IMG/VR virus record: IMGVR_UViG_3300044709_000184
Location: 1-64,000 of that record
Length of the DNA: 64,000 nucleotides
Origin: a virus
Lineage: Duplodnaviria; Caudoviricetes
Strand: one strand, 5' to 3'
Shown here piece after piece: positions 2,674 through 40,598 of this stretch. The first letter of the stretch is position 1, and the number at the start of each line of letters is the position of its first letter. The notes below the pieces were generated by a model that worked only from the letters and a program-made list of their open reading frames with translations, was not told the origin of the DNA and did not search any database. A program made the position numbers and the translations under genes.

Positions 2674-2891
2674 GCGCCGCCCCGGGCCGCCCCCAACGCG
2701 CCGACTACCTGGCGTCGGTCGCCGACACCGACGGCCACGCCGCCACCTGCGGCACCTGCCGGGCCGGTGGGGTGTGCGGCACCGCCGACCTGCTCATGGA
2801 ACGCGAGTACCGCGACCACGAAGACCTACGCACCGTCGACCCCCTGGCGGCCCGTGCCGTCGACCGGGCCACCTGGCCCACGGAAGGATGA
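2670..2891 (+). CDS. Small Cys/His protein
   Basis: HxxxCxxC...C; overlaps both neighbours. Confidence 0.65.
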   Translation: MSAAPGRPQRADYLASVADTDGHAATCGTCRAGGVCGTADLLMEREYRDHEDLRTVDPLAARAVDRATWPTEG

Positions 2892-4165
2892 CCATGCCCA
2901 CGCCCACGACTGTCCGAGGCCACGTCGGCCGTTTGATCCACCTGTACTGGCGGGAGGCCCTTGTCGTCCTCGCCCTGACCGTCACCGCCTGCGTGCCGCT
3001 GGCCATCCCGCAGTCCCGCCGGTACGCCCTGGGCTGGATGCGGTGCGGCCGTACCCGCCGCCTCATCCGGGCCGGCCTGGCCGCCACCAAGATGACCAAC
3101 ACGGCGGGCCAGGTGCCGCGGGTGCGGTCGGTGAAGGCCACCCCGGTCGGGGAGAGGGTGGAGCTGCGCACCCGGGCCGGCCATTCGGCTGAGCTGCTGT
3201 CGCTGCGTATGGAGGAGCTGCGGGCGGCGTTGAAGGCCCGCACGGTGCGCATCGACCGTGACCCCGAAGCCTCCAACAAGATCACGATGGAGGTGGTGCG
3301 GCGTGACCCGCTGGCCGCCGTCGCGATGGTGGCGTGGCTCGACCAGGACAAGCCGACCCTGTCGCTGTGGGACCCGATGCACCTGGGCACCACTGAGCTG
3401 GGCGTCGACCGTCGGCTCAGCCTGGTCGGCCGGGGCATCGTCGCCGGCGGCATCATGGACTCCGGCAAGTCGTCCCTGCTGAACCTGGTTGTAGCGACCG
3501 CGGCCAAGTCGCCTGCCGCGCTGTACCTGATCGACCCGCAGGGTGTGCAGTTCGGGCCGTGGCGGGCGCGGGCCACCATGTACGCCCAGAAGGACCCGGA
3601 CGAGGCTCTGGCGGTGTTGGAGGCCGTACAGGCCGAGATCGACGAGCGGCTGGCCGCGATGGAGGCCCTGCCGGGTGTGGTCCGCAAACTCACCCCCGCC
3701 GTGGCCGACCAGCTGGGCCTGCACCCGTTCGTGTTGGCGATCGACGAGCTGGCCTACCACACCGCCACCGTCGGGTCGGGCGCCCAGCGGGACCGGTTCG
3801 CGTCGACCGCCCGTGACGTGGTCTCACGCGGCCGGGCCGCCGGCCTCATCCCGGTCATGGCCACCCAGCGCCCCACCCAGGACGTCGTACCCCGGGCCCT
3901 CACCGACCTGTTCGGCATCCGGGTCGCGTTCAAAACCGCCAACGACGCCAACAGCGACATCCTCCTCGGCACCGGCCTGGCCGCCCGCGGCTACAACGCC
4001 GCCGACATCGACCTCGAATCCCGGGGCGTGGGGCTGCTGCTGGGCCCCAGCGGAATACCGGAACGCATCAAGGTCGCATGGGTGTCTGACGACGTCATCG
4101 ACGGTCTGGCCAGCACCACCGTCGCCTTCAAGCCCCGCCGCGCCAGCGTTGCCGCGGCGGCCTAA
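2888..4165 (+). CDS. Second FtsK/SpoIIIE-family ATPase (short TraB-like)
   Basis: One TM, Walker A GIMDSGKS, Walker B LAIDE, ATQRP; ends just after the ATPase domain. Confidence 0.85.
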   Translation: MTMPTPTTVRGHVGRLIHLYWREALVVLALTVTACVPLAIPQSRRYALGWMRCGRTRRLIRAGLAATKMTNTAGQVPRVRSVKATPVGERVELRTRAGHSAELLSLRMEELRAALKARTVRIDRDPEASNKITMEVVRRDPLAAVAMVAWLDQDKPTLSLWDPMHLGTTELGVDRRLSLVGRGIVAGGIMDSGKSSLLNLVVATAAKSPAALYLIDPQGVQFGPWRARATMYAQKDPDEALAVLEAVQAEIDERLAAMEALPGVVRKLTPAVADQLGLHPFVLAIDELAYHTATVGSGAQRDRFASTARDVVSRGRAAGLIPVMATQRPTQDVVPRALTDLFGIRVAFKTANDANSDILLGTGLAARGYNAADIDLESRGVGLLLGPSGIPERIKVAWVSDDVIDGLASTTVAFKPRRASVAAAA

Positions 4166-7811: not shown

Positions 7812-8336
7812 TTACCGCCCCACATGGATGTCCACGCCGGTGAAGGCGTGGCAGCGGGCGCAGTAGCCGTGGGTGGCGTCGTTCGGGTTGTGCGACACGA
7901 CCAGGCAGCGGGGGCAGGTGAACGACTCGCCGGCGGCGGCCACGTTGACCCGGGCCGCGTAGGCAGCGTTCAGGGCAACCCTCGCCAGGTCGCCGCCCGT
8001 CGCCGCCCCGGGCGGCAGCGAGTCGAGGGCTGCCGCGGCCGCAGCGTAGTCGGCTTCGGTCGGCGGGGCCGGCGGCGGCTGGTCGACGGCCGGGTCCGTC
8101 ATGGCGACCTGGGCGAGGTAGCCGCCGACGCGGGTCACCTGGTCTTGGATGTCGTCCTCGGTAACCCCGCCGATGATGACGATGGGCAGCGGCGCGAACC
8201 CCACGTCGGCGGCGTTGAATGCGATCGGCTTGTCGATGCCCAGCCGGGCCATGTTCTCGGCCGACAGACCGATGAGCAGCACCGGGCCGCCCCCGGTCCG
8301 TGACCGCAACGCTGCTTTGATCATCGAGCGGTGCAA
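7812..8336 (-). CDS. Hypothetical protein with C-terminal zinc ribbon
   Basis: CPRC...CARC; start uncertain. Confidence 0.65.
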   Translation of the reverse strand: MHRSMIKAALRSRTGGGPVLLIGLSAENMARLGIDKPIAFNAADVGFAPLPIVIIGGVTEDDIQDQVTRVGGYLAQVAMTDPAVDQPPPAPPTEADYAAAAAALDSLPPGAATGGDLARVALNAAYAARVNVAAAGESFTCPRCLVVSHNPNDATHGYCARCHAFTGVDIHVGR

Positions 8337-8362
8337 CGAGCCGGTGCAGTGGCCGGAAACGC

Positions 8363-8414
8363 AAAAAGGGCCCCGGCCCGCCCCCGTGTCGGTCGGAGGC
8401 GGGCCGGAGCCCTT
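8363..8414 (-). terminator. Intrinsic terminator of the 14.3 to 8.4 kb operon
   Basis: About 20-bp GC stem followed by TTTTT on the minus strand. Confidence 0.75.
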
Positions 8415-8683
8415 GTGGGTGTGCGGTCGTGCGGGTGCGGTCCAGCGGAACGCACAGGGGCTCTCAGCGGGCCGTGTCAGCCGGCGGAGCCGTCGGGGTA
8501 CAGGTGCGGCTCACTGTCCAGATGTGCCCGCACCCGGGCCTCGACCATCTCATCGATCAGGTTGGCCAGGACGTCGACCACCATCTGGGGCCCGCGCCTC
8601 AGCGCCGGTGCCGTCGGCCGGGTCGAGGGCCTCAGTGAGGTACGTGACCAGCTCGGTGCGCCGCGCTACGTGGTGTTCGCCGC

Positions 8684-8884
8684 TCATGTCGGTAGGTGTC
8701 CTTCGGCCAGCAGTTGTTCCAGGTCGGCGGCGACGGGCTCGGCCATGAGGAGCAGCACCGGCCCGTCCTGCCCGGCGAGGGTGACGATGATGCCGACCTT
8801 GGTCTGCCCGTCGGTTGTGTCTCGCCCGATCATGGCTGTGGTCGTGTCGACCTGAAAGATGCCGGTGATCTCAACGCGGTCCAT
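8684..8884 (-). CDS. Hypothetical protein
   Basis: Starts 1 nt after upstream stop. Confidence 0.6.
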   Translation of the reverse strand: MDRVEITGIFQVDTTTAMIGRDTTDGQTKVGIIVTLAGQDGPVLLLMAEPVAADLEQLLAEGHLPT

Positions 8885-8885
8885 G

Positions 8886-9350
8886 TCAGCACCGCTCACA
8901 GGTGCGCATCCCGGCCCGCCATTCAGAGCCGGCGACCCGATGTCCGCAGGTGCCGACCACGAAGCCCTCAAGCATCTCGGCCGGCAGGTCCGGGTGATGG
9001 AACGGCGTGCCGGGCTCGGCCAGGGTGACGGCCGGGTTGGTGGTCGGGATCGCCACGAGCTTGCCGCCGTCGGGGCCCTTGATGTAGGTGACTCCCTCCT
9101 CAGCGCCGTCGATGTCGATGACCTGATACGCGCCGGCCGGCAGGGCATAGCCGCGGCCGGTGTGGGCGATGCCCGTGATCTGTTCGTTGAGGATTGCCAG
9201 CATGCGAGGTCCTTCCATGGTTTGGGCCGCGGCCCAGGCCGCGCTGAAACTGGCGTCCAGCTCGGCCCGGGTCGGCGGTGGTGTGTCGTCGCGGAACGCC
9301 TCACGCAGCAGGGCGTCCACCTCGCCATCGGTCAGCTCTTCGCCGGCCAT
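8886..9350 (-). CDS. Hypothetical protein with C-terminal Zn motif
   Basis: CGH...CERC. Confidence 0.65.
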   Translation of the reverse strand: MAGEELTDGEVDALLREAFRDDTPPPTRAELDASFSAAWAAAQTMEGPRMLAILNEQITGIAHTGRGYALPAGAYQVIDIDGAEEGVTYIKGPDGGKLVAIPTTNPAVTLAEPGTPFHHPDLPAEMLEGFVVGTCGHRVAGSEWRAGMRTCERC

Positions 9351-9356
9351 CGGGTG

Positions 9357-9593
9357 CTACCAGCCCAGCGCTTCGCGGGCGTCGCCGTTGAGGTAGTCGA
9401 GCTGGCCGCCGTCGGCGACGTAGACGACGTCTTTACGGCCGTCAAGGTCAGCGACGGCGTAAACCTCGGCCGCGACAACTGAGCCGATCGAGTGGGCAAA
9501 CGGGTGGGCGGGCTGAACAGCCAGCTGGATCGGGGTGCCGCGGTCGAACTCTCCGAGCGCGTCGATCAGGTCGCCGACGGTCAGAATGGCCAT
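9357..9593 (-). CDS. Hypothetical phage protein
   Basis: AGGAGGAG RBS. Confidence 0.7.
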   Translation of the reverse strand: MAILTVGDLIDALGEFDRGTPIQLAVQPAHPFAHSIGSVVAAEVYAVADLDGRKDVVYVADGGQLDYLNGDAREALGW

Positions 9594-9623
9594 GGGGGTA
9601 CTCCTCCTGTGTGTTGGGTCGGA

Positions 9624-9902
9624 TCAGTTGTGGCGCCGCGCTGGTGACTTGATCTGCGCGATGGCGTGCTCGGGGGTGTCGGCGGTCAGCCGGTACTGCA
9701 GGGTGCCGTACACCTGGTTCCATGAGCCGTCGTCGAGCGACCGGACGAACAGGCCCTTGCCTTCGCCGTCGGTGCGGAACTCCAGCGGTGTGCCGGGCGG
9801 GTCGTCTGGGTGCTGCACCAGCTGGGTCCATGACCAGCCGCCGTCGCGGTACCGGGCGACATCCGTGATCGTCGTGGTGTAGCCCTCATCATCGGGTTGC
9901 AT
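9624..9902 (-). CDS. Hypothetical protein
   Basis: TAGGAG RBS. Confidence 0.65.
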   Translation of the reverse strand: MQPDDEGYTTTITDVARYRDGGWSWTQLVQHPDDPPGTPLEFRTDGEGKGLFVRSLDDGSWNQVYGTLQYRLTADTPEHAIAQIKSPARRHN

Positions 9903-9914
9903 GCTGCTCCTAGT

Positions 9915-10108
9915 TGGGTGGGCGGGCGAGCCGTGATGCTCCTGCCTGGCACAGACAAACCTCGCTGTGCCGGGTCGGTTGGTCACGGATCGGCTGAGCT
10001 GCAAAGACAGGACTTTGCATGATCGACGACGTGAACGCTCGTCTCCTCCGTTCGGCCGAGGTGCGGGATAGCCGAACGGGGGAGGTGAGCGCGGGGCGCT
10101 ACTCAGTG
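9915..10108 (-). ncRNA. Candidate structured intergenic RNA (about 190 nt)
   Basis: Three hairpins plus enclosing CCGTGA/TCACGG and CTGAG/CTCAG pairings. Confidence 0.45.
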
Positions 10109-10110
10109 CC

Positions 10111-10542
10111 TCAGTGCGCCGTCAGCCGCCGGGCGGCGGCGTGGCTGTGGAACACCTCCATGGCGCAGTGCCAGCACACATACCGGCTATGGGTGCGGTC
10201 GTAGTGCTGGATCGCCGTCCCGCCGCCCAGGTTCGGGCTGTGCACGGCACACCGGGCCCGCATGGTGGGGTCGGCTCGGGGGTGGTCCTCGTGGCTTGCG
10301 CCGCACCCGACCCACCGGTACAGGCACAGCCGCTCCCACTGGTCGTCGATGACCTTGAACGACGTCGAGTCGACCTGGTCGACCAGCGCGACGATGTTGT
10401 CGTCGCCGGCCCGGGCGTGCTCGGCTGCCTCTTCGACCGTCGGGTACAGCGTGACGGTCTGGTGTGCGCTACCGGCGACGGTCAGCCAGTCGGGGCCGGG
10501 GATGAACTTGCCCGACACCCAGCCCCGCGTCTCACCGGTCAC
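10111..10542 (-). CDS. Hypothetical Cys/His-rich protein
   Basis: GTGA-coupled. Confidence 0.6.
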   Translation of the reverse strand: MTGETRGWVSGKFIPGPDWLTVAGSAHQTVTLYPTVEEAAEHARAGDDNIVALVDQVDSTSFKVIDDQWERLCLYRWVGCGASHEDHPRADPTMRARCAVHSPNLGGGTAIQHYDRTHSRYVCWHCAMEVFHSHAAARRLTAH

Positions 10543-10904
10543 CGGTCTGCCCCGTCCAGCTCGGCCAGGCGCAGGTCGGCGAGGATAGCCGCCTGCCGGG
10601 CCCATGACCACTCGCACTGGTCGCCGTCGTCGGTCTGGTGCCCGACCGGGTAGCCCTCGGCCCGCAGGTCGATGCCGCAGCGGGGGCAGTGCTCGGGGCA
10701 TTTGTCGGACAGCTTGAGCAGGCTCTGGCTGATCCACTGGCCGCCCTTGGTGTTGTTCGGGTCGGTGGGCCAGACCCGAACCAGCGGGTCGGTGTCGTCG
10801 TCGCGGATGGGGTCGGTCTCGGTCACCTCGTACGTGCGGCCGGTGACCGGCCGGATCGTGAACACGACCACGTCGCCCGGGGCGAGGTAGCGCTGGTCAG
10901 ACAT
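10539..10904 (-). CDS. Hypothetical protein with CxxC
   Basis: AAGGAG RBS. Confidence 0.7.
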   Translation of the reverse strand: MSDQRYLAPGDVVVFTIRPVTGRTYEVTETDPIRDDDTDPLVRVWPTDPNNTKGGQWISQSLLKLSDKCPEHCPRCGIDLRAEGYPVGHQTDDGDQCEWSWARQAAILADLRLAELDGADR

Positions 10905-11019
10905 TGGTTGCTCCTTCGGGTCGGGTGTCTCCTACCGTAACAGGTACCGGCAGGAGACACAACCGTGTGGCCACCGCACCGCACCGGCCCATCACCCTGG
11001 GCCGGTGCAGCACGGCTAG

Positions 11020-11346
11020 TCAGACGGAGGTGGTGTGGTGGTCGTTCCGGGCCGCGAGCGCTTCGACCACGTGGGAGCAGCACGGCGTGTAGGCCGAGCT
11101 GGCAACCGGTGTGCGCAGCGTCCGCATCAGGTCATGCCCCCGGCCGACCTTGATCCGGTCGGCGGCGGCCACGACTCTCTCCTTCACCACAGCGGGTAGC
11201 TCAGGGCGCGTGGCGTAGGCCAGCACGTCCTCTTCCGCCTGCCGCAGCTGCTCGAGGACGTCGATCCAGTCCTTCCGCGGCGGGTCGTACACGAGCGTCG
11301 GCGGCGTCGGCTTGCGGGTCAGCCACCTCGTGATCGTTTGGAGCAT
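11020..11346 (-). CDS. Hypothetical protein
   Basis: GGGAG RBS. Confidence 0.65.
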   Translation of the reverse strand: MLQTITRWLTRKPTPPTLVYDPPRKDWIDVLEQLRQAEEDVLAYATRPELPAVVKERVVAAADRIKVGRGHDLMRTLRTPVASSAYTPCCSHVVEALAARNDHHTTSV

Positions 11347-11445
11347 GTCGGTTCTCCCATCCGACTGCCCAGATGCCCGTCTGGGTCGGTTCTGGCCTGA
11401 CGGCCACGGCTCCGGCTGGTACGGCGACCAGCCGGGCCGGAGCGG

Positions 11446-11931
11446 TCAGGCGGACTTGCGGGCGACGGGGTTGATGCTGAGGCCCATGACGGCCTCGAGG
11501 TGCGGGTTGGTCTCGCCGGCCATGTACCACGTCTGGAGCCGGTTGAGCCGCTCAGCGGTGACGGCCGGCTGGGCCGAGTCGGCGTACCAGGGGGCGATCG
11601 CGGCGGCGAGCTGGTGCGGCGCTACCACTACGACCCGGCCGGTGGCTTCCTCGACGATCCGGAGCCGGCCGCGGGCGGCCCGCACACGGAACCAGTCGAT
11701 GGCGATGTTGGCCAGCAGTGAGATCGCCCAGGCGCCGCCGCAGGCGTACAGCGTGAACCGGATGTTCTCGGCGGTGGCGCCGAGGAATGCGGCGGCCAGG
11801 GCGGCGCCCACTGACCAGGCCAGGAACATGCCGGCGGCCAGGCTGACCGCGGTGAACAGCCAGACCTTCATCCACCTTTCCGGTGTCCGGTAGCCGGCGG
11901 CCGAGGCGGTGGGCTTGGTGCAGGTGACCAC
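11446..11931 (-). CDS. Membrane protein (2-3 TM)
   Basis: AAGGAGG RBS just 3' of tRNA-like element 1. Confidence 0.7.
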   Translation of the reverse strand: MVTCTKPTASAAGYRTPERWMKVWLFTAVSLAAGMFLAWSVGAALAAAFLGATAENIRFTLYACGGAWAISLLANIAIDWFRVRAARGRLRIVEEATGRVVVVAPHQLAAAIAPWYADSAQPAVTAERLNRLQTWYMAGETNPHLEAVMGLSINPVARKSA

Positions 11932-11967
11932 GATGGGGCCTCCTTCGGTTGGGGGGGTTCGGGGTCG

Positions 11968-12047
11968 CCTCCCTGCCAGGGCTCGAACCTGGACCTGCCG
12001 GGGCCCGTCGGCTGACCGGTCGCGCTACCACGTTGCGCTACAGGGAA
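11968..12047 (-). ncRNA. tRNA-like element 1 with aberrant 14-nt anticodon loop
   Basis: TTCCCTG-TA-GCGC-AACGTGGTA-GCGC-G-ACCGG-TCAGCCGACGGGCC-CCGGC-AGGT-CCAGG-TTCGAGC-CCTGG-CAGGGAG-G; acceptor, D and T arms intact; no encoded CCA. Confidence 0.8.
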
Positions 12048-12085
12048 GATCGGGGCCCGGCCCAGGGGTTCGGGCCGGGCCTTCG

Positions 12086-12367
12086 TCATGGATCTAGTTG
12101 GGGTGACTCGGGGGCGCGGTGACCGCACTCTCTCGCGGGCACGCCGCAGGAGCCGCAGTAGTCGTCCCAGCCGTACCGGTTGCGGCACAGCGACCGCAGT
12201 CCGTCGGGGGTTTCGGCAGTGAGCCGGTTCGGCAGGCGCAGCGCCTCGTCGTGGCTGGCCTCGACCGGTGCCGGGACCGCGTTCCAGCGGGGTCCGGGTG
12301 TGCTGTACCAGACGTGCCAGCCGGGTAGCTGCCCGGCGAGCCGGTCAATCCACGTGCTGGTCTTCAA
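12086..12367 (-). CDS. Hypothetical protein with C-terminal CxxC...CxH
   Basis: TTGA-coupled. Confidence 0.6.
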   Translation of the reverse strand: MKTSTWIDRLAGQLPGWHVWYSTPGPRWNAVPAPVEASHDEALRLPNRLTAETPDGLRSLCRNRYGWDDYCGSCGVPARECGHRAPESPQLDP

Positions 12368-12768
12368 TGGGGGGTGCTCCCTTCTGGCGGGCTGTCGGGC
12401 AGGTAGTACGGCCACGCCTCGGGGCCCCACTCGTCGCCGCAGCCGGGGCATTGGAAGATGTCGGCCGTGCCGGTGTCCAGCTCGGTGCCGCAGCTGATGC
12501 AGTGCGGGTCCAGGACGGCCCGGGCGGCGGCCCGTTTGGCGCCGGCCACGGTGCCGCTGTGACCCTGCTCGTGGATCCGGTAGCCCGGCTCGGGGCCGAA
12601 CTCCGGGCCCCGCAGGGCCCACCGCCAGCCGCCCTTCGCCTTGTCCCGGCTCACGGCCAGATAGACCACTCCCGGCCGGCCCGACTCGCCGACGACATTC
12701 CGGGCCAGGGTCATCGACCAGTACGAAAGCGCCCCGGTCGCCGGGATGCGTTCCCAGACACGGGTCAT
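12364..12768 (-). CDS. Zinc-ribbon protein
   Basis: CISC...CPGC; ATGA-coupled. Confidence 0.65.
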   Translation of the reverse strand: MTRVWERIPATGALSYWSMTLARNVVGESGRPGVVYLAVSRDKAKGGWRWALRGPEFGPEPGYRIHEQGHSGTVAGAKRAAARAVLDPHCISCGTELDTGTADIFQCPGCGDEWGPEAWPYYLPDSPPEGSTPH

Positions 12769-12977
12769 GACGCACCCCCGGCGGGGGTGTCGGCGGCGAG
12801 CAGCTTGTGGAGCCACACCTGCTCACGGATGTACCGCAGCGTGGCACCGCCGGTGCGGGTGACGAACTCGCCGCAGCTGCACTCGACGTCGTAGCCCCAG
12901 GTGCCGCGCATCGACGCCTGACGGCGGATCCGCTCACGACCGGCGTACACGTACCACGTCATTCGATGGGTGACCAC
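12765..12977 (-). CDS. Small Cys/His protein
   Basis: AAGGAGG RBS just 3' of tRNA-like element 2; CSCG...H. Confidence 0.7.
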   Translation of the reverse strand: MVTHRMTWYVYAGRERIRRQASMRGTWGYDVECSCGEFVTRTGGATLRYIREQVWLHKLLAADTPAGGAS

Positions 12978-13001
12978 AGTGGACCTCCTTCCGTTGGGTC
13001 G

Positions 13002-13073
13002 TCTCCCTGCCCGGGGTCGAACCGGGACCTGCCGACCAGGGGGCCGGCTGCGCTGCCGTTGCGCTACAGGAAG
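13002..13073 (-). ncRNA. tRNA-like element 2 with aberrant anticodon arm
   Basis: CTTCCTG-TA-GCGC-AACGGCA-GCGC-A-GCCGG-CCCCCTGG-TCGGC-AGGT-CCCGG-TTCGACC-CCGGG-CAGGGAG-A; 8-nt loop with no U33, can zip to a 7-bp stem with CCCT loop. Confidence 0.82.
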
Positions 13074-13158
13074 GTGGAGGGGCGGGAACCCCGCTAGAGT
13101 TCCCGCCCCTCGTTCACCGCACCGGCTAGCGGGACCGGTCGGTCCGACTAGCCGAGGC

Positions 13159-13716
13159 TCACGGGGTGGCCCCCGTCGCCGCGAGCTGCTTGGCCTGCTC
13201 GGCCCGCACCCGCTTGCGGTACTGCATCGTCAGAGCTGCCTTGCCGGCGGCGTCCTTCTTGTCGTAGCCCTTGGACTTGCGCCAGGCCTTCTCGGCCTCC
13301 GTGACCACCCACGCCTCTTTCGGGGCGGTGGCGACTGGCTTGGGTGCGACGGACTGACGGCCCGCCTTGGTGATGTGGTGCTCCAGCAGCATGAAGACGC
13401 CGACGGTGAGTACGCCGAACCCCTTCTCGCCCAGGTTGTGACCGGCGTACACGTTGGCCGCCAGGCTGAGAAGGCCGCCTGCCATCAGCAGGCGGAAGCC
13501 GGACCGTCGGAAGCCCGGCAGGAAGTCGGTGTGCATCGACAGCTTGCCGACCACGGCAACGAAGTCGATGAGGCCGACCGCGGCGAAGCGGTACCAGCCC
13601 GACAGGCCGAGCATGCCGGCCGTGTCCACGATGTGCGATGCGCTGACGAACCCGGCGAGCACGAGCAGTCCAGAGACGCCCACCGTGATGATCCGCATAC
13701 GCGTGACGCTGTTCAT
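13159..13716 (-). CDS. DUF2637/Spd-like multi-pass membrane protein
   Basis: S.SHI...ID...SLAANV pattern, four TM, basic tail; GAGGAGG RBS. Confidence 0.7.
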   Translation of the reverse strand: MNSVTRMRIITVGVSGLLVLAGFVSASHIVDTAGMLGLSGWYRFAAVGLIDFVAVVGKLSMHTDFLPGFRRSGFRLLMAGGLLSLAANVYAGHNLGEKGFGVLTVGVFMLLEHHITKAGRQSVAPKPVATAPKEAWVVTEAEKAWRKSKGYDKKDAAGKAALTMQYRKRVRAEQAKQLAATGATP

Positions 13717-13729
13717 GGCCCCTCCTCAG

Positions 13730-14308
13730 GGGTCGAAGTTTGGGTGACCGTTTGGCCGCCCCCGCGGCGGCCCCCCGGTCTCGGGGGTTTGGCCCGGGCG
13801 CTGGCGGAGCTTTCGCTCGACGCCGGCTGCCTCACGGGTTCGGGAGTTGTGGTCCTGCCACTTCAGAGGGGCTGAGGGGGGCGGGCCTGCCGTGCCGGCC
13901 GCTGTCTGGGCGAGGGCACCCGATCGCCGCTTGACCACGTTCGGACTTACACCGCCTCGTGGCGGCCGAAGCCGCTCCTATGTCTGCCTAGCTCTTGGCG
14001 CGCTGCCAGCCGTTGGCTGGTCGTTGGCTTCCCTCATCGCCTCAGCCCCTTTGGAGGGGCAGGGGGTTGATCTTTGCGCTCTGTCCGTTCCGCTCGATCT
14101 TCACTTCGCGTTCGGTGGTCCTCGGTCGGCTAGCTCGTCCGGTGGGTCTAGGTTGCAGGCCTTGCAACCGATCTGCGGGCGGGCTCGGGCAGGTTTCCCG
14201 GTGGCCTCTCGTCTCGTACCTAGCGGCTTGGTGCTCGTCGCGGGTGCGGGTGGGGGTCTTGCTTCCCCGGCGCCTCTGTGGAGTTTTCAATCTTCGATTT
14301 CCCCCGTT
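13730..14308 (-). ncRNA. Candidate large structured RNA or 5' leader (about 580-590 nt)
   Basis: No credible ORF; GAAA and cUUCGg tetraloop hairpins on the minus strand; 24-nt long-range helix 13854-13877/14040-14063; directly after a promoter. Confidence 0.6.
14276..14290 (-). promoter_or_regulatory. boxA-like antitermination signal
   Basis: TTGAAAACTCCACAG resembles actinobacterial rrn leader boxA (TTTGAGAACTCAA.AG). Confidence 0.5.
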
Positions 14309-14343
14309 ACGTAAAGTGTAACACATGTCGGGTAGTGATACGA
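14304..14343 (-). promoter_or_regulatory. Promoter (TCGTAT-N17-TACACT) with TTAC-N7-GTAA palindrome
   Basis: 29/38 identical to 21678-21715. Confidence 0.7.
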
Positions 14344-14375
14344 CTGGGGTAGGGGGATCCCTGCCCCTTCCGGGA

Positions 14376-14391
14376 TGTGATCCTGGTCACA
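14376..14391. promoter_or_regulatory. CRP/GlxR-type binding site
   Basis: Perfect TGTGA-N6-TCACA in the divergent intergenic region. Confidence 0.6.
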
Positions 14392-14524
14392 TTTGGGGGT
14401 TTGGCTTGTCGGTTGACGGTCAGCGTGCCCGCGCCCGCCCGCGCTAGGGTCTGCCCCAGACAAGGCAGGCCCCGGGCGGCATCCGCGCCCAGCCCGGGGC
14501 CCCGATCAGGACGGAGCCCTGACC

Positions 14525-15100
14525 ATGTACCCGACCGTAACCCCAACCCCCCGCCGTAGCCGTGTTCCGCTGGTCCTGGGCATCATCGGCGGCGCCCTGT
14601 TCCTGCTGTGCGGCGGCCTGGTCCTCATCGTCGCCCTGGCCGCGAAGAGCGTCCCCAGCACCGCGACCAGCGCCGGCGGCAACGGCGCGGCCGGCCCCGC
14701 CGTGGCAGGTCTGGGCCAGCCGGCCCGTGACGGCAAGTTCGAGTTCACCGTGACAAAGGTCCAATGTGGTGTGCCCCAGGTCGGCACCGACCTGTTCAGC
14801 CGCAAGGCCCAGGGCCAGTACTGCCTCGTGTCCGTCACGGTCGCCAACATCGGCGGCGAGCCCCGCACCCTGGCCGCCGCCAACCAGCACGCCTACAACG
14901 CCGCCGGCGCAACCTACGACGCCGACTCGGCCGCCTCGATCTACCTCAACGACGCCGGGCGGGTCCTGTACGAGCCGATCAATCCCGGCAACCGGGTCAA
15001 CGGCACCCTGGTCTTCGACATCCCGAAAGACGGCAAGCTGGTCCGGCTCGAGCTGCACGACTCGCCGCTGTCGGGCGGAGTCGCGGTCACCCTGGGCTAG
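14525..15100 (+). CDS. DUF4352-type membrane-anchored protein (Mpr-like; possible superinfection exclusion)
   Basis: TM; RDGKFEFTV, KAQGQY, INPGN, LVFDIP, LELHDS motifs. Confidence 0.8.
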   Translation: MYPTVTPTPRRSRVPLVLGIIGGALFLLCGGLVLIVALAAKSVPSTATSAGGNGAAGPAVAGLGQPARDGKFEFTVTKVQCGVPQVGTDLFSRKAQGQYCLVSVTVANIGGEPRTLAAANQHAYNAAGATYDADSAASIYLNDAGRVLYEPINPGNRVNGTLVFDIPKDGKLVRLELHDSPLSGGVAVTLG

Positions 15101-15972
15101 CCCAGGCCGTCCCGGAAGGCGACCAGCTCCGGGTAGCCGTGGAAGTCGGCGACGCCGAGCAGCCACGCCGCCACCCGGGCCTGCCCGATCTCCCGGTCCA
15201 CCTCGTCGCCGTCGACGTTGGCCACGCGGACCAGGTAGCTGTGCCCGGCCGGCCCCGGGTGCAGGTACGTCAACCAGCCCTGCCGGTGGGCGACCATCAG
15301 CCCGGCCACACACCGGTCCGCCAGGGACAGCTCGCCGGGGTCCAGGGGCAGCGGCTCCGGCGACGCCACAGGGGTCAGGTCGGCGCCGACGGTCCTGGGC
15401 CGGGCCGGGGTCGGGAGGCGACGCAGCAGCGCCCACCACCGTTCCCGGGCCGTGTCGGCGGCCGACTGGGCCGCCTGGGTCGGCTGGGCGGCCAGCCGGC
15501 GGGTCGCGGCCTCGGCCTGCACCTCGTCGACGAACAGGTACCGGGCCAGGCCCCGGCTGAGCCGATTGTGGGCGTAGAGCGGGTACATGGCCCGGGCCAG
15601 GTACTCGGCCCCGTAGGTCCCGACCGTCGCGGACGGGTCGGCGACCTTCGGCAGCAGCTGGGCCGCGTCGCGGGGGGTGATGACCCGCGGCCAGGGCCCG
15701 GCGGCCAGGGCCGGGATCAGACCCGTGTACCCGGCCGCGCAGGCCAGCCCGTCACACCAGGCCACTGGCTCGTCCCGGATCAACGTCCGGAACGTGCGGG
15801 GCCGCCCGGCCGGGTTCAGGGCCAGCACCTGCCGGGCCAGGGCCGGCTCACCGGCCACATACCGGGCCAGGCCCAGCTCGTGCACGGCCCGCATCGCGAA
15901 GAGCTCCAGGATGGCCTCATGGACCGCGGTCGCCTCAGGGGGAGGGGTCACGGCGGGCAGACTAGCAGCCAT
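15097..15972 (-). CDS. Hypothetical protein
   Basis: 291 aa ORF, codon bias. Confidence 0.7.
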   Translation of the reverse strand: MAASLPAVTPPPEATAVHEAILELFAMRAVHELGLARYVAGEPALARQVLALNPAGRPRTFRTLIRDEPVAWCDGLACAAGYTGLIPALAAGPWPRVITPRDAAQLLPKVADPSATVGTYGAEYLARAMYPLYAHNRLSRGLARYLFVDEVQAEAATRRLAAQPTQAAQSAADTARERWWALLRRLPTPARPRTVGADLTPVASPEPLPLDPGELSLADRCVAGLMVAHRQGWLTYLHPGPAGHSYLVRVANVDGDEVDREIGQARVAAWLLGVADFHGYPELVAFRDGLG

Positions 15973-37609: not shown

Positions 37610-37914
37610 ACCGGCTCCCCGTGGGTGAAGTGGGCGGTGGCCCAGCCGGGGTGGTCGGACTGCTCATCGACGACCAGCCCGTAGCCCCACCGCATGCCGA
37701 TGAGGTCAAGCTGGCCGGCCAGCTCAACCCGGATCGTGGCGGTCAGCGCCGACACCTGCGCCGCCGCGGCCAGGCGCAGCACCTGGTCCAGCTGGGCGGT
37801 GGCGTAGCCGGCCACGAACGCCTGGTCGTCGTAGGGGCCGCCGTGGCTTTCGGTAGCCACAAACGGCATCACCAGCTCGTAGCCCTCACCGTCGTCGGGC
37901 TGCTCGTCGCTCAT
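37606..37914 (-). CDS. Hypothetical protein between TMP and Dit
   Basis: Coupled on both sides. Confidence 0.7.
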   Translation of the reverse strand: MSDEQPDDGEGYELVMPFVATESHGGPYDDQAFVAGYATAQLDQVLRLAAAAQVSALTATIRVELAGQLDLIGMRWGYGLVVDEQSDHPGWATAHFTHGEPV

Positions 37915-40598
37915 CGGCGTCCTGTTCCGGCCAGCACCCGGGCCTTGGTCGTGCGGTTCCGTTCGGTGATCTGGGTGTCGACGAGCTGGGTCAGCTCGGT
38001 TTGGCCGATGAAGACCCGCACGTCGAAGGCGGGGGTGCCGGCGCCGACCGGGGTGCCGGCGGTGTTGGCCGACCCGGTCGTGGCGACCGACATGGCCCGG
38101 GCGAGCAGGTCGATGGCCCGCCGGTCTTCCAGCGGCAGGACCAGCTCGCCGGGGTGCAGGTTGGCCACACCGCCGCGGGTGGTCAACCCGCCCGTGTCGA
38201 GCGACGGCAGGCGGGGCAGGGAGATGCCGGGCAGGGCGTCGTCGACCTGGGCGATGCCGGAGTTGATACCGGAGATGACCTTGTTGAGTAGGCCCTTGAT
38301 CGCGGCGACGATGCGGGAGGCCAGGTCACCGACGAACCCGCCCGCCTGACCCAGGCCGCTGAACAGGCCCTTGATCATGGCGAGGCCGGCATCGAACATG
38401 GCCCCGGCCAGGTTCGCGATCCGGCTCGGCACCGACAACGCGAACGTGACGATCGCGGACAGGGCGGCGATGGCGTTGTCCCGGGCCCGGGCCAGGGCGG
38501 TCGACACCCCGGTCGTGATCGCGTTCCAGGCGATGGACAGGGTTTCGGGGATCCGCTGCACGAACGTGGTCACGGTCGACACGAGGAGGCTCAGGCCCGC
38601 GGCGGCCGCGGCGACGACCGCGTCGAAGACGAAGCCGACGGTCTCCGGTATCCGGCCGATGGCCTGCCCGATGAGCTGGGGCAGGGCCAGCAGCTCACCC
38701 AGGATCAGCCCGATGCCGAAGCCGATCGCGTGGAGGGCGGCGTCGGCGGCGGCCTTGAACGCGCCCCCCACGATGCCGGGCAGCGAGGCCAGGAACGCCC
38801 CGACCTTCCCCGGGATGGCGGCCAGGAACGAGCCAATGCCGGCGAAGAACCCACCGACGGCTGAGGCGGCCTTCTTGATCGAGGGCACGACCTTGTCCAG
38901 GTCGGTCTTGAAGATCCGGGGCCAGTTGCGGATGTCCAGCAGCACCGTCGACGCCTTGTCGACGACACGGAACAGGGACGCCATCGCGTCGGCGACGGCA
39001 CGCAACGCCGGGCCGATCGCCTTGTTCGCGGCCAGCGAGGTGAGCAGGGCCAGCAGCTGGATGCCGGGGCGCTGCATGCGCAGCCACAGGGTGAGCAGTT
39101 CCGCGATGACCGGCAGCAGGGGGATCAGCGATTTGACCAGGTCCACCGTGGCCGGGACCATGTCGATGATCAGCTGGACCAGCTCATCCAGGGCACCCGA
39201 CCGGACCAGCTCCGTGACGGCCTGGGCCAGGGCGTCACCGATGGCCTCGGCCAGGGGCTGCAGCCCCACCACGAGCCGCTCGACGATCGGGGCCAGGGCC
39301 TGCATGGACCGTGAGATCGGGGCGAGCAGGGTGGTCGCCAGCCGGACGAACACCCCCAGGATCGGGGACAGGGCTTTGACAGCCTCGGCGATCAGGGGCA
39401 GCACCCCGGCCAGGAAGTCGCCCAGGGCGGGGGCCAGCACCTTGACCGCGTCGCCGATGATCGGCGTCACCGCCGTCAACGTGTCTTTGATCTTGGGGAT
39501 GACCGGGGTGAACGCGTCGGTCAACGCGATGCCGATGGTGTCCTTGAAAGTGGACCAGACCCCGTTGAGGGTTTTGGCCTGGGCGACCATCGCCCCGGCG
39601 GCGCCGGGGAACTTGGCCATCCCGGTCAGCAGGGCGTTGATGCCGGTGCGGGCGTCAACCCCACCGGCGGTGATCTTCGCCAGGGTGTCGGCGACCGACA
39701 GGCCCAGGGCGCTGGCGATGGCGGCGTTGGAGTTGAACCCGGGCAGGGCCTCGCTGAGCTGGAGGATCTCCTCCTGGCTGACCTTGCCCTTGGAGGCCAT
39801 CTGACCCAGGGCCCTGATGACCGACTGGATGTTCTCGCTGGTGCCGCCCAGCACACCGACCAGGTCACCGATGGTGGTCAGGGTCGGGATGACCTTGTCT
39901 CGGGTGATGCCGACCGCGTTGCCGAACGCCAGGATCCGCCGGCTCGCGTCGGCGACGTCGGCGAACTGGAACGGGGTCGCCGCGGCGAACTGCTGCAGCT
40001 GGGCGCTGAACGCCTTGGCCGCAGCGGCCGACCCGAGCAGCGACGTGAGCCCGATCTGGGTCTGTTCCAGGGCCGCGGCGCTCTTCAACCCGAACGCGGT
40101 CAGGGCGCTCAACCCGGCCACGGCGGCGGTGCCGGCGGCCAGGGCGGCGCCCTTGATGACCGACCAGGCCGCAACCCACCGGGTGGAGGTGCTCGCGGCG
40201 GCGGCGCCGGCCTTATTGGCGATCTGCTGGAACTCGCGGGCCGAGGTGCGGTCCAGCTCGGACAGGGCCCGCTCGGACACCTCACCGCCGAGTTGGAAGG
40301 AGGCGCCGATCTTCCCGGCGGCCGCGGCCCCCGACGCGGCCGTGTGGGCGAAGGCCTCCGTGGCTTCCCGGCTGATCTTGCCCATGGCCCGGTCGACGTC
40401 TGAGGCCAGACCGTCCAGGGCCCGCCCGGACTGGTCGGCCCCGGCCCGGGCCCCGGCCGAGATCTTCGTGGCCAGGGCAGCGGTGTCGACGTGCACGCCG
40501 CGCAGGGCCTTGTTCAGCTCCCGCTCGACGTCACCGGCGAAGGTTTTCGCAACCTCACCGGTGACCTGCACGGTCGCCTTGCCCAACGGACGGGTCAC
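37911..40598 (-). CDS. Tape measure protein
   Basis: FAAATPF...ALGQMASKGKV..EEI.QL domain; Ala/Gly-rich helical repeats. Confidence 0.92.
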   Translation of the reverse strand: MTRPLGKATVQVTGEVAKTFAGDVERELNKALRGVHVDTAALATKISAGARAGADQSGRALDGLASDVDRAMGKISREATEAFAHTAASGAAAAGKIGASFQLGGEVSERALSELDRTSAREFQQIANKAGAAAASTSTRWVAAWSVIKGAALAAGTAAVAGLSALTAFGLKSAAALEQTQIGLTSLLGSAAAAKAFSAQLQQFAAATPFQFADVADASRRILAFGNAVGITRDKVIPTLTTIGDLVGVLGGTSENIQSVIRALGQMASKGKVSQEEILQLSEALPGFNSNAAIASALGLSVADTLAKITAGGVDARTGINALLTGMAKFPGAAGAMVAQAKTLNGVWSTFKDTIGIALTDAFTPVIPKIKDTLTAVTPIIGDAVKVLAPALGDFLAGVLPLIAEAVKALSPILGVFVRLATTLLAPISRSMQALAPIVERLVVGLQPLAEAIGDALAQAVTELVRSGALDELVQLIIDMVPATVDLVKSLIPLLPVIAELLTLWLRMQRPGIQLLALLTSLAANKAIGPALRAVADAMASLFRVVDKASTVLLDIRNWPRIFKTDLDKVVPSIKKAASAVGGFFAGIGSFLAAIPGKVGAFLASLPGIVGGAFKAAADAALHAIGFGIGLILGELLALPQLIGQAIGRIPETVGFVFDAVVAAAAAGLSLLVSTVTTFVQRIPETLSIAWNAITTGVSTALARARDNAIAALSAIVTFALSVPSRIANLAGAMFDAGLAMIKGLFSGLGQAGGFVGDLASRIVAAIKGLLNKVISGINSGIAQVDDALPGISLPRLPSLDTGGLTTRGGVANLHPGELVLPLEDRRAIDLLARAMSVATTGSANTAGTPVGAGTPAFDVRVFIGQTELTQLVDTQITERNRTTKARVLAGTGRR

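Follow-up and report, generated by a model that had tools for sequence, protein, structure and literature searches.

The DNA analysed here is a 64-kb window of a ~102-kb viral record (101.9-kb genome) from an uncultured soil actinobacterial phage, for which the phage collection gave no match to a cultured relative. The region of interest is one long minus-strand operon, and between its genes lie two tRNA-shaped folds without an anticodon, E2 and E1, each just past a hairpin. A single long transcript would run from a promoter near 14310 to the operon's sole U-tract terminator at 8413-8367. Its parts, in the order of transcription, are as follows.

14376..14391, no strand: perfect palindrome TGTGA-N6-TCACA in the divergent intergenic region.
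14306..14322, minus: candidate -10 TACACT (14320-14315) inside a GTTAC...GTAAC palindrome, read from the sequence.
14279..14294, minus: 16-nt motif AAGATTGAAAACTCCA near the transcript 5' end, common to otherwise unrelated leaders.
13717..14305, minus: long non-coding leader, ~590 nt and U-poor (7-8% U), from homologue comparison and composition.
13854..14064, minus: 211-nt conserved leader core, with a long interrupted helix predicted to close it.
13719..13732, minus: small hairpin CCCCU-GAGG-AGGGG holding the Shine-Dalgarno (SD) of gene A, kept in four homologues.
13159..13716, minus: gene A, a 185-aa membrane-type protein (GC3 0.91).
13079..13158, minus: two hairpins after gene A, neither with a U-tract (MFE -61.1 kcal/mol, z = -6.1).
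13002..13073, minus: E2 (ARAGORN 13073-13001), from ARAGORN, the MFE cloverleaf, model R1 (84.3 bits) and pair counts.
12978-13001, minus: shorter version of the E1 trailer, following E2, from regular-expression matches.
12086..12977, minus: cassette genes B70 (12977-12765), C134 (12768-12364) and D93 (12367-12086), from ORF calls.
12053..12081, minus: GC-rich hairpin that lacks a U-tract and stops 5 nt short of E1 (MFE -26.7 kcal/mol, z = -4.0).
11968..12047, minus: E1 (ARAGORN 12047-11967), from ARAGORN, model R1 (75.1 bits) and folds.
11932..11967, minus: E1 trailer, consisting of CGACCC, a C-rich tract and GAAGGAGG, followed by a GTG start at 11931-11929.
8684..11931, minus: genes E161, F108, G121, H143, I92, J78, K154 and L66, from ORF calls, with hairpin spacers between them that show conservation and repetition.
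8367..8413, minus: intrinsic terminator, a 20-bp stem with a T-run (MFE -49.2 kcal/mol, z = -7.2).

Much of this layout had been proposed in an earlier note on the same DNA. Both of its tRNA-like cloverleaves with non-canonical 'anticodon' loops were recovered by ARAGORN and by minimum-free-energy folding, as were the GC-rich hairpins directly upstream of each, the three ORFs between them and the closing intrinsic terminator. The ~590-nt leader is indeed non-coding, since it differs from its homologues by indels whose lengths are not multiples of 3. All of the spacers that the note had called folded do fold strongly (z = -3.3 for 11445-11350, -6.4 for 11018-10908, -3.6 for 10108-10020 and -2.2 for 10019-9905). 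The contrast it drew with a tightly packed rest of the element was overstated; a crude gene call leaves 80 nt or more between same-strand genes at many other places. Canonical terminator structure is confined to the last hairpin: U-tracts are missing from the internal ones, and no terminator was detected between the presumed promoter and 8413-8367.

The signals at the head of the operon, and its first gene, fared less well. The supposed CRP-type site is a perfect palindrome and the single match to TGTGA-N6-TCACA in the 64-kb window, yet chance alone would give the window about one site with no more than one mismatch. It is not kept in the related genome G001, which has other palindromes in the same place, and it may represent a CRP/GlxR-type site or a phage operator. 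A consensus scan of 8300-14600 gave no promoter-like site of the sigma-70 type, so the claimed promoter is reduced to the candidate -10 TACACT, and 14306..14322 is presumed to hold promoter and operator. The 16-nt motif at 14294-14279, a putative boxA, occurs once in the genome and is partly present in G001; it is also the sole stretch shared with the otherwise unrelated leader of contig L045 (93.75% over 16 nt). The gene A protein had been called DUF2637-like. DUF2637 (PF10935) gave no Pfam match above the curated cut-off, with none in the window's protein at E <= 1 and a weak one (E = 0.0044) in one of four gene A alleles; the contig of a homologue is flagged 'weak'.

The leader found no match in Rfam release 15, either at gathering scores or at E <= 10, among all families including riboswitches, T-box, RNase P RNA, ROOL, GOLLD and the known antitermination RNAs. 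Its 211-nt core is 88-98% conserved in three relatives (G001, L023 and L046); in G001 it is ~92% identical, compared with 41-44% identity for the downstream protein. The alignment fold of the core has 62 predicted pairs and no compensatory changes, and covariation in the leader is too sparse for proof of a fold. The SD hairpin at 13719..13732 shows one compensatory change, C-G to U-A, in L023. Because L045 joins the same tRNA mimic to an unrelated leader, the leader and the mimics are separable, and the leader is probably a separate cis-acting structured RNA. Two leading guesses for its role are regulation of the SD hairpin and read-through of the internal hairpins.

Both elements are built on the tRNA plan. 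E2 has a 7-bp acceptor stem, a GCGC D stem and a 5-bp T stem with a TTCGA loop, and where a tRNA has its anticodon arm there is a 7-bp hairpin with a 4-nt loop. E1 shares these acceptor, D and T arms, and in it a longer two-part hairpin replaces the anticodon and variable arms. ARAGORN assigns two-base 'anticodons' to the window elements. A search with model R1 found that G000 and G001 have just two copies each, and together with copies from other related phages and soil contigs they make up a family of 10 distinct copies, 67-81 nt long. The two window elements are full-size cloverleaves that retain the D arm and the elbow. The 7-bp plus 5-bp acceptor/T-arm stack with its TTCGA T-loop is kept across the family, as is the D-loop GG, in what amounts to a non-decoding mimic. 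At position 1, where tRNAs usually have G, the copies have C or U, and CCA is not encoded. The whole 101.9-kb genome has no ordinary tRNA genes, and thus no tRNA cluster of which the elements could be remnants. ARAGORN found no tmRNA, in which a tRNA-like domain is joined to a tag reading frame.

The cloverleaf without a canonical anticodon loop is present in all 10 distinct members. In the acceptor, D and T stems all 160 of 160 pair cells are standard pairs, against 38-53% paired cells in slid controls, and three stem pairs have changes on both sides. The 'anticodon' hairpin varies freely in sequence and length while the stems stay fully paired. The covariation score was 0.165 versus 0.080 in shuffles, with 0 of 500 shuffles reaching 0.165, a comparison in which kin sequences can beat column shuffles without structural constraint. 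The copies are closely related (effective number 2.17), and because the family is small and related its covariation rests on three pairs. Structural conservation in homologous loci, the absence of which the earlier note had taken as grounds for abandoning its proposal, is thus present, in mimics with compensatory changes and in several conserved hairpins.

In 8 of 8 distinct contexts the element lies between a stop-codon-proximal hairpin and the next SD. This hairpin is GC-rich, lacks a U-tract and stops 2-8 nt short of the element; the hairpin sequences differ. The hairpins after gene A are kept in G001, L023 and L046, with one compensatory pair, and counterparts of the hairpin before E1 (12053..12081), different in sequence, precede the element in L019, L023, G001 and L045. 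A trailer, an SD and a start codon are conserved after every family copy. This order of hairpin without U-tract, 2-8 nt, mimic, C-rich trailer, SD and start codon fits an endonucleolytic punctuation of the transcript.

The mimics also sit at the joints of a variable gene cassette, which the earlier note had missed. L024 and the P0002 contig have the three genes bracketed by E2 and E1 (12086..12977); in each of G001 and L023 a single unrelated ORF stands in their place, and L020, L028, L029, L035 and L046 lack them. Several relatives have one mimic, not two, and single 'hybrid' elements combine an E2 body with an E1 trailer. The gene after the element is E161, G121 or F108, depending on the relative. 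Some mosaic breakpoints fall inside genes and not at elements.

E2 and E1 are best read as tRNA-derived structural mimics. The features by which tRNA end-processing enzymes know their substrates, namely the acceptor/T-arm stack and the D/T-loop elbow, would be retained, and the part used in decoding would have been lost. For RNase P it is the shape of a tRNA that counts and not its anticodon, and the enzyme also cleaves phage RNAs and mRNAs that fold like tRNAs (PMC11143913). The host is assumed to supply the set of processing enzymes. Host RNase P would cut on the 5' side of C1 (13073 in E2; 12047 or 12048 in E1), and the upstream message would then end in a stable hairpin plus 2-8 nt, which may protect it from 3' exonucleases. 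The non-G position 1 and the missing CCA may lower the efficiency of RNase P. A 3' activity may cut after the discriminator (13002; 11968), and RNase Z is the probable one because the trailer is CGA, not CCA. Such a cut would release a tRNA-like RNA of 72-80 nt, and the message downstream would then begin with the C-rich trailer and SD; otherwise the mimic would remain attached to that message as a structured cap at its 5' end. Since conservation covers hairpin, mimic, trailer, SD and first codons but not the neighbours of this module, the module may double as a homology patch for the gain, loss and swap of cassettes. Taken as a whole, this reading of processing punctuation combined with a homology patch is favoured with modest confidence, on sequence comparison.

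The modules might instead be chiefly DNA-level recombination linkers that spread with the cassettes, with a tRNA shape inherited from an ancestral tRNA gene and little function in RNA. In favour of this, relatives differ in the cassette exactly between the elements, where it is present, absent or replaced, and hybrids occur and downstream genes differ. Another boundary module, spacer S2, has no tRNA shape and recurs around additional cassettes in L028, and the PeSL cassettes of T4-type phages provide a precedent (PMC2839356, PMC4122927). However, a pure homology patch needs no pairing, yet the stems are fully paired through compensatory changes while the 'anticodon' hairpin is free, and the E2 of G001 keeps the fold despite differing widely in sequence from the window's E2. 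An explanation by linkers alone is considered unlikely.

A trans-acting product is likewise improbable. Here the released tRNA-like RNAs, perhaps CCA-tailed, would be what the phage makes. They could, for example, act as regulators, or bind as decoys or sponges to host factors or defence toxins that recognise the tRNA acceptor end or elbow. The full elbow is kept, D-loop GG and T-loop included, beyond the minimal need of RNase P, and the paralogous types E1 and E2 lie side by side in several genomes; bacterial Y RNAs show that tRNA-like domains can work in trans (PMC4201824). Against this, many relatives have one element only, the arm attacked by anticodon nucleases is missing, no partner gene is co-conserved, and the tight placement between hairpin and SD would be needless for an RNA acting in trans.

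That the whole region is one integrated system, in which a leader-borne antitermination signal is needed to read through the punctuated operon, is less probable still. The leader adjoins the presumed promoter and has a conserved core, the many strong internal hairpins would need read-through, and the 16-nt 5' motif is common to unrelated leaders. But L045 carries the same mimic behind an unrelated leader, hairpins without U-tracts may need no antitermination, and the leader has neither an Rfam match to known antitermination RNAs nor covariation support for its fold. Judged from these comparisons, the parts are not one obligate system, because the leader of L045 is unrelated and several relatives have a single mimic. 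The interpretation in the earlier note is thereby partly supported: the structural conservation stands and the layout fits endonucleolytic punctuation, while the union of the parts into one obligate system does not hold.

It is very improbable that the elements are decaying or unusual tRNA genes, whether pseudogenes or odd decoding tRNAs: their D and T arms are tRNA-typical and ARAGORN calls the G001 E1 copy a tRNA-Gly(CCC) with a 7-nt loop, but that loop has C at position 33 instead of U33 (read from the sequence), MFE folding gives each of the other nine copies a two-part hairpin or a loop of 3-6 nt, the Rfam tRNA model (RF00005) has no match in the window at its gathering score, the best tRNA-clan match at E <= 10 is mascRNA for E1 and none for E2, and not every stem would have survived neutral decay in 10 variants.

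Among known families, a decoding tRNA (RF00005) was rejected as an identity, the acceptor/D/T cloverleaf being present and the 5-bp stem with a 7-nt loop, U33 and readable anticodon, as well as a score at the gathering level, being absent. The match of E1 to mascRNA-menRNA (RF01684), its best tRNA-clan match, is weak (17.6 bits, E = 8.8) and far below the 42.5-bit gathering score, and this identity was rejected too. At the 3' end of MALAT1 and MEN-beta a tRNA-like fold follows a stabilising structure, and an RNase P cut yields a protected 3' end and a small tRNA-like RNA, mascRNA. The phage fold also comes directly after a stabilising structure, but MALAT1 is protected by a triple helix, not a hairpin, and is part of a nuclear system in eukaryotes.

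In plant mitochondria, t-elements and tRNA punctuation place non-decoding tRNA-like folds at the borders of polycistronic mRNAs, where RNase P and RNase Z make mRNA ends (Forner et al. 2007, PMC1920247). The phage elements are likewise non-decoding tRNA-like folds at cistron borders inside a polycistronic unit; they differ in the phage operon setting, in being full cloverleaves with a D arm, in the upstream protective hairpin and downstream SD module, and in that processing is here predicted. Host RNase P also processes non-tRNA phage RNAs and polycistronic mRNAs through tRNA-like structure, as in the P1/P7 C4 antisense RNA precursor and the mRNAs of his and other operons (PMC11143913), although these are neither cloverleaf tRNA copies nor repeated modules at gene-cassette joints. 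The PeSLs of T4-type phages, a conserved intergenic promoter and terminator stem-loop flanking small variable early genes, serve as homology patches for shuffling (PMC2839356, PMC4122927). In the present phages, too, an intergenic module is conserved and repeated where variable genes join. PeSLs differ in having no tRNA mimic, and the present modules have no evident promoter: the scan of 8300-14600 showed no early promoter in them, and only 2-8 nt separate hairpin and element. No paper describing anticodon-less tRNA mimics in phages was found in the literature.

For these phages, the mimics probably show host tRNA-trimming enzymes where to cut and mark the sites at which cassettes are swapped. 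The effect of such cuts would be that the stability and translation of neighbouring gene blocks are uncoupled.

The operon lies in an IMG/VR viral record of 101.9 kb (estimated completeness ~94%), the first 64 kb of which make up the window. The window has a G+C content of ~71% and encodes a tape-measure protein, a DUF5047 tail protein, a DnaB helicase, a PD-(D/E)XK nuclease, a DUF5131 protein, an amidase, a tyrosine recombinase and an FtsK/SpoIIIE-like protein; this gene content points to an uncultured phage or phage-plasmid of the actinobacterial type. The FtsK/SpoIIIE-like gene occurs on one record with tape-measure and tail genes (2774-4165 with 37911-40598). None of the cultured phages in the collection was similar to the region, either in a DNA search or in a protein search with two of its proteins, and locus scans of viral contigs with single proteins found no relatives. 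Relatives came from pattern scans and one protein search: G001, a related near-complete phage of 103.5 kb, and about a dozen related soil and rhizosphere contigs (L and P numbers below). The operon is on the minus strand, divergent from a plus-strand DUF4352 gene (14525-15100; DUF4352 match with E = 1.7e-26). A minus-strand ORF upstream of the operon (14444-15439) encloses the DUF4352 ORF and is probably spurious.

Layout of the operon, in minus-strand order
14376-14391: perfect palindrome TGTGA-N6-TCACA, read from the sequence
14322-14306, minus strand: candidate -10 hexamer within a small palindrome, read from the sequence
Between the candidate -10 and gene A, minus strand: gap of ~590 nt with no credible ORF (sequence and ORF list)
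13716-13159, minus strand: gene A (ORF list)
13073-13002, minus strand: tRNA-like element E2, preceded by two hairpins
Between E2 and E1, minus strand: three overlapping ORFs of 70, 134 and 93 codons (B70, C134, D93)
12047-11968, minus strand: tRNA-like element E1, preceded by one hairpin
After E1, minus strand: eight further small genes (E161, F108, G121, H143, I92, J78, K154, L66) and three long spacers
8413-8367, minus strand: textbook terminator

The earlier note had read several signals from this layout, and they fared unevenly. The spacers between the downstream genes are folded as claimed, far above shuffled controls (z from -2.2 to -6.4), and the intrinsic terminator is in place at the operon end; a U-tract is found only behind the last hairpin of the operon and behind none of the internal ones. 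The proposed CRP-type site is a perfect palindrome that occurs once in the window, where chance alone would give about one site with <=1 mismatch, and it is absent from G001. The promoter claimed upstream of the leader was not recovered: a promoter scan of the operon region gave no match, and the candidate -10 hexamer is the only trace. Nor is the first gene recognizably DUF2637-like, gene A being without a Pfam match and one of its four alleles touching DUF2637 at E = 0.004. The RNA-rich layout was said to be an exception in this genome, in which a crude gene call shows sizeable same-strand gaps elsewhere too.

Several operon proteins are small, rich in paired cysteines and zinc-ribbon-like (12364-12768, 10111-10904 and 8886-9350, minus strand). 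C134 weakly matches zinc fingers of the HVO_2753 and prokaryotic RING types; G121 has a match to phrog_19044, a family of unknown function. B70, D93 and I92 have in common a short motif, roughly RLTA(D/E)TP (12781-12812, 12204-12235 and 9670-9701), which first surfaced as a family of DNA direct repeats; the three may be paralogous small domains. Directly before the terminator, two short ORFs (45 and 35 codons; 8477-8687, minus strand) differ in frame and may be two tiny genes or a single gene with a frameshift; this stretch is 95% conserved in contig L029.

Both anticodon-less tRNA-like elements were borne out. ARAGORN labels both as "tRNA-???" and assigns them two-base anticodons, and RNAfold folds each into a full-size cloverleaf, whose anticodon arm has 7 bp and a 4-nt loop in E2 and is a longer two-part hairpin in E1. 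In an alignment of ten distinct family sequences from the window, G001 and the soil and rhizosphere contigs, the acceptor, D and T stems have standard pairs in 160/160 pair cells; when the 3' partners were slid as a control, pairing fell to 38-53%. Covariation across relatives, the check that had been suggested, is seen in the elements but not in the leader core, whose four copies hold no compensatory change. In the elements both-sided changes occur at three pairs (U-A to C-G in the acceptor stem, A-U to C-G and G-C to C-G in the T stem), and the covariation score of 0.165, versus 0.080 in shuffles, was reached by none of 500 shuffles. The family keeps the elbow, with GG in the D-loop and TTCGA in the T-loop; the "anticodon" hairpin is free in length and sequence and has a 3-, 4-, 5- or 6-nt loop or is two-part. 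The E1 of G001 is called tRNA-Gly(CCC) by ARAGORN and has C in place of U33 in the loop.

A covariance model of the family scores its members at 69-86 bits versus 29-56 bits for ordinary tRNAs, and finds exactly two copies in the whole record and exactly two in G001. No ordinary tRNA gene was found in the whole genome; the "tRNA-Glu(CTC)" that ARAGORN places beyond the window (82446-82537 of the record, 92 nt) has mismatched stems, lies in apparent coding sequence and was discarded as a false positive. Since the stems are kept and ordinary tRNA genes are lacking, the elements are selected structural mimics, not decaying tRNA genes. In three further contigs, seen as gene layouts only, intergenic gaps recur where E2 and E1 would lie. 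Rfam, at the gathering score and at E <= 10, gave nothing meaningful for elements, spacers or leader, and a T-arm/acceptor pattern had no match in a scan of the genome collection. A trailer pattern hit 51 stretches of viral contigs, among them the known relative L003; the covariance model matched none of the other 50. An attP role was rejected: both elements are complete cloverleaves, not a whole-plus-partial pair, and lie ~35 kb from the integrase gene.

The hairpins described ahead of both elements were confirmed by folding against shuffled controls (z = -6.1 before E2, -4.0 before E1) and by their recurrence: in 8/8 distinct contexts a GC-rich hairpin, differing in sequence, ends 2-8 nt upstream of element position 1. 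Behind gene A the pairing of the hairpins is kept in G001 and L023, with one compensatory change. In every copy the discriminator base is followed by CGACCC, then by a C-rich tract, an SD and a start codon, and in the window the genes behind E2 and E1 have their first three codons (GTGGTCACC) in common. The trailer reads CGA, not CCA, which is compatible with an RNase Z cut behind the discriminator.

The structures and their conservation are solid, and the function that we infer from them takes the form of a testable mechanism: it is moderately probable that the elements direct cutting of the operon message by host RNase P and RNase Z. Signals of tRNA shape that guide processing are textbook matter for mitochondria and for MALAT1/mascRNA, and the element family would belong with this known kind. 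RNase P reads the acceptor/T-arm stack and the elbow of tRNA-shaped RNAs, not the anticodon, and cuts phage RNAs and operon mRNAs with tRNA-like folds (reviewed in PMC11143913). With recognition resting on shape, a cut on the 5' side of E2 and E1 would be very likely in any bacterium, provided that the RNAs fold as predicted. Such a cut would leave the upstream message with a 3' end protected by the hairpin that lies 2-8 nt ahead of the element, the same logic as in plant-mitochondrial t-elements (PMC1920247) and in MALAT1/mascRNA. A role as a tRNA look-alike acting in trans is unlikely.

The elements mark joints of gene cassettes, and what lies between them differs among relatives.

Content between E2 and E1
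Window, L024, P0002 contig: three ORFs
G001: one unrelated ORF
L023: a different single ORF
L020, L028, L029, L035, L046: nothing; a single "hybrid" element with E2 body and E1 trailer

The gene behind the last element is E161 in most relatives, a G121 homologue in L023 and an F108 homologue in L045, and identical elements adjoin gene A alleles with only ~40% protein identity. In L028, two extra small-gene cassettes between the F108 and G121 homologues (L028:1735-2515) have around them repeats of another boundary module, which is not tRNA-like: the first hairpin of spacer 11018-10908. The stop-codon-proximal hairpin module of the spacer recurs behind the first of these cassettes. Not every mosaic breakpoint is at an element. 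The element modules probably double as homology patches for cassette exchange, as do the PeSL modules of T4-type phages (PMC2839356, PMC4122927). That they are mainly a DNA-level linker is likewise unlikely.

The ~590-nt leader (14305-13717) had been described as non-coding and structured. The former holds: its indels are not multiples of 3 (single-base) and the candidate ATG is lost in G001, and a protein-coding leader was rejected. Its 3' 350 nt are ~92% identical between the window and G001, versus only 41-44% for the adjoining encoded proteins; the 5' 220 nt do not align. A core of 211 nt (14064-13854) is present also in L023 and L046; in its predicted fold a long interrupted helix closes the domain (z = -1.8 for a 357-nt stretch). 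The absence of compensatory change in the core is due to the four copies being too alike, and its predicted fold is therefore unproven; compensatory changes occur in two hairpins downstream of the core, one of which holds the gene A SD. The leader has 7-8% U versus 13-16% elsewhere. A ~200-nt insertion between the core and the 3' hairpins in L046 (L046:3137-3339), U-poor too, looks like a variable peripheral domain. An iteron or origin region was rejected, no direct repeats being found in the leader, as were a cobalamin riboswitch and RNase P RNA, which short motifs such as GGTGYARGTCC had suggested for the core and Rfam did not support. Matches to a leader-loop pattern lay only in coding regions of unrelated bacteria and were judged chance.

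Contig L045 combines the same tRNA mimic with an unrelated leader of ~600 nt, also U-poor (L045:8560-9179), whose sole similarity to that of the window is a motif of 16 nt close to the 5' end; leader and mimics are thus separable modules. The L045 leader precedes a longer gene A allele and holds a T-loop-like hairpin, GCCG-TTCGAAT-CGGC. A single integrated antitermination system, as first proposed, is quite improbable. For elements with fully kept stems, tRNA pseudogenes or odd tRNAs are the least credible reading and highly improbable.

Full-text literature searches found no paper on tRNA-like elements as gene punctuation in bacteriophage operons. A broader proposal is possible but doubtful: i) hairpin, anticodon-less tRNA and SD would form a dedicated, portable phage device that recruits host RNase P and RNase Z to cut early polycistronic RNA into separately stable messages and releases CCA-tailed tRNA look-alikes acting on host tRNA-binding factors; ii) as a second, coupled function, the device would be a joint for cassette exchange between phages; and iii) the transcript would be under the control of the U-poor 211-nt leader core, a large structured regulatory RNA of a new class. 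As a candidate new structured RNA, the core is open to direct testing. For annotation, "tRNA-???" or "tRNA-Gly" calls by tRNA finders can falsely suggest codon-usage adaptation. If RNase P and RNase Z cut here, the most conserved RNA-processing enzymes of the host would set the stability of single early messages, and the modules would also explain the shuffling of small early genes between phages.
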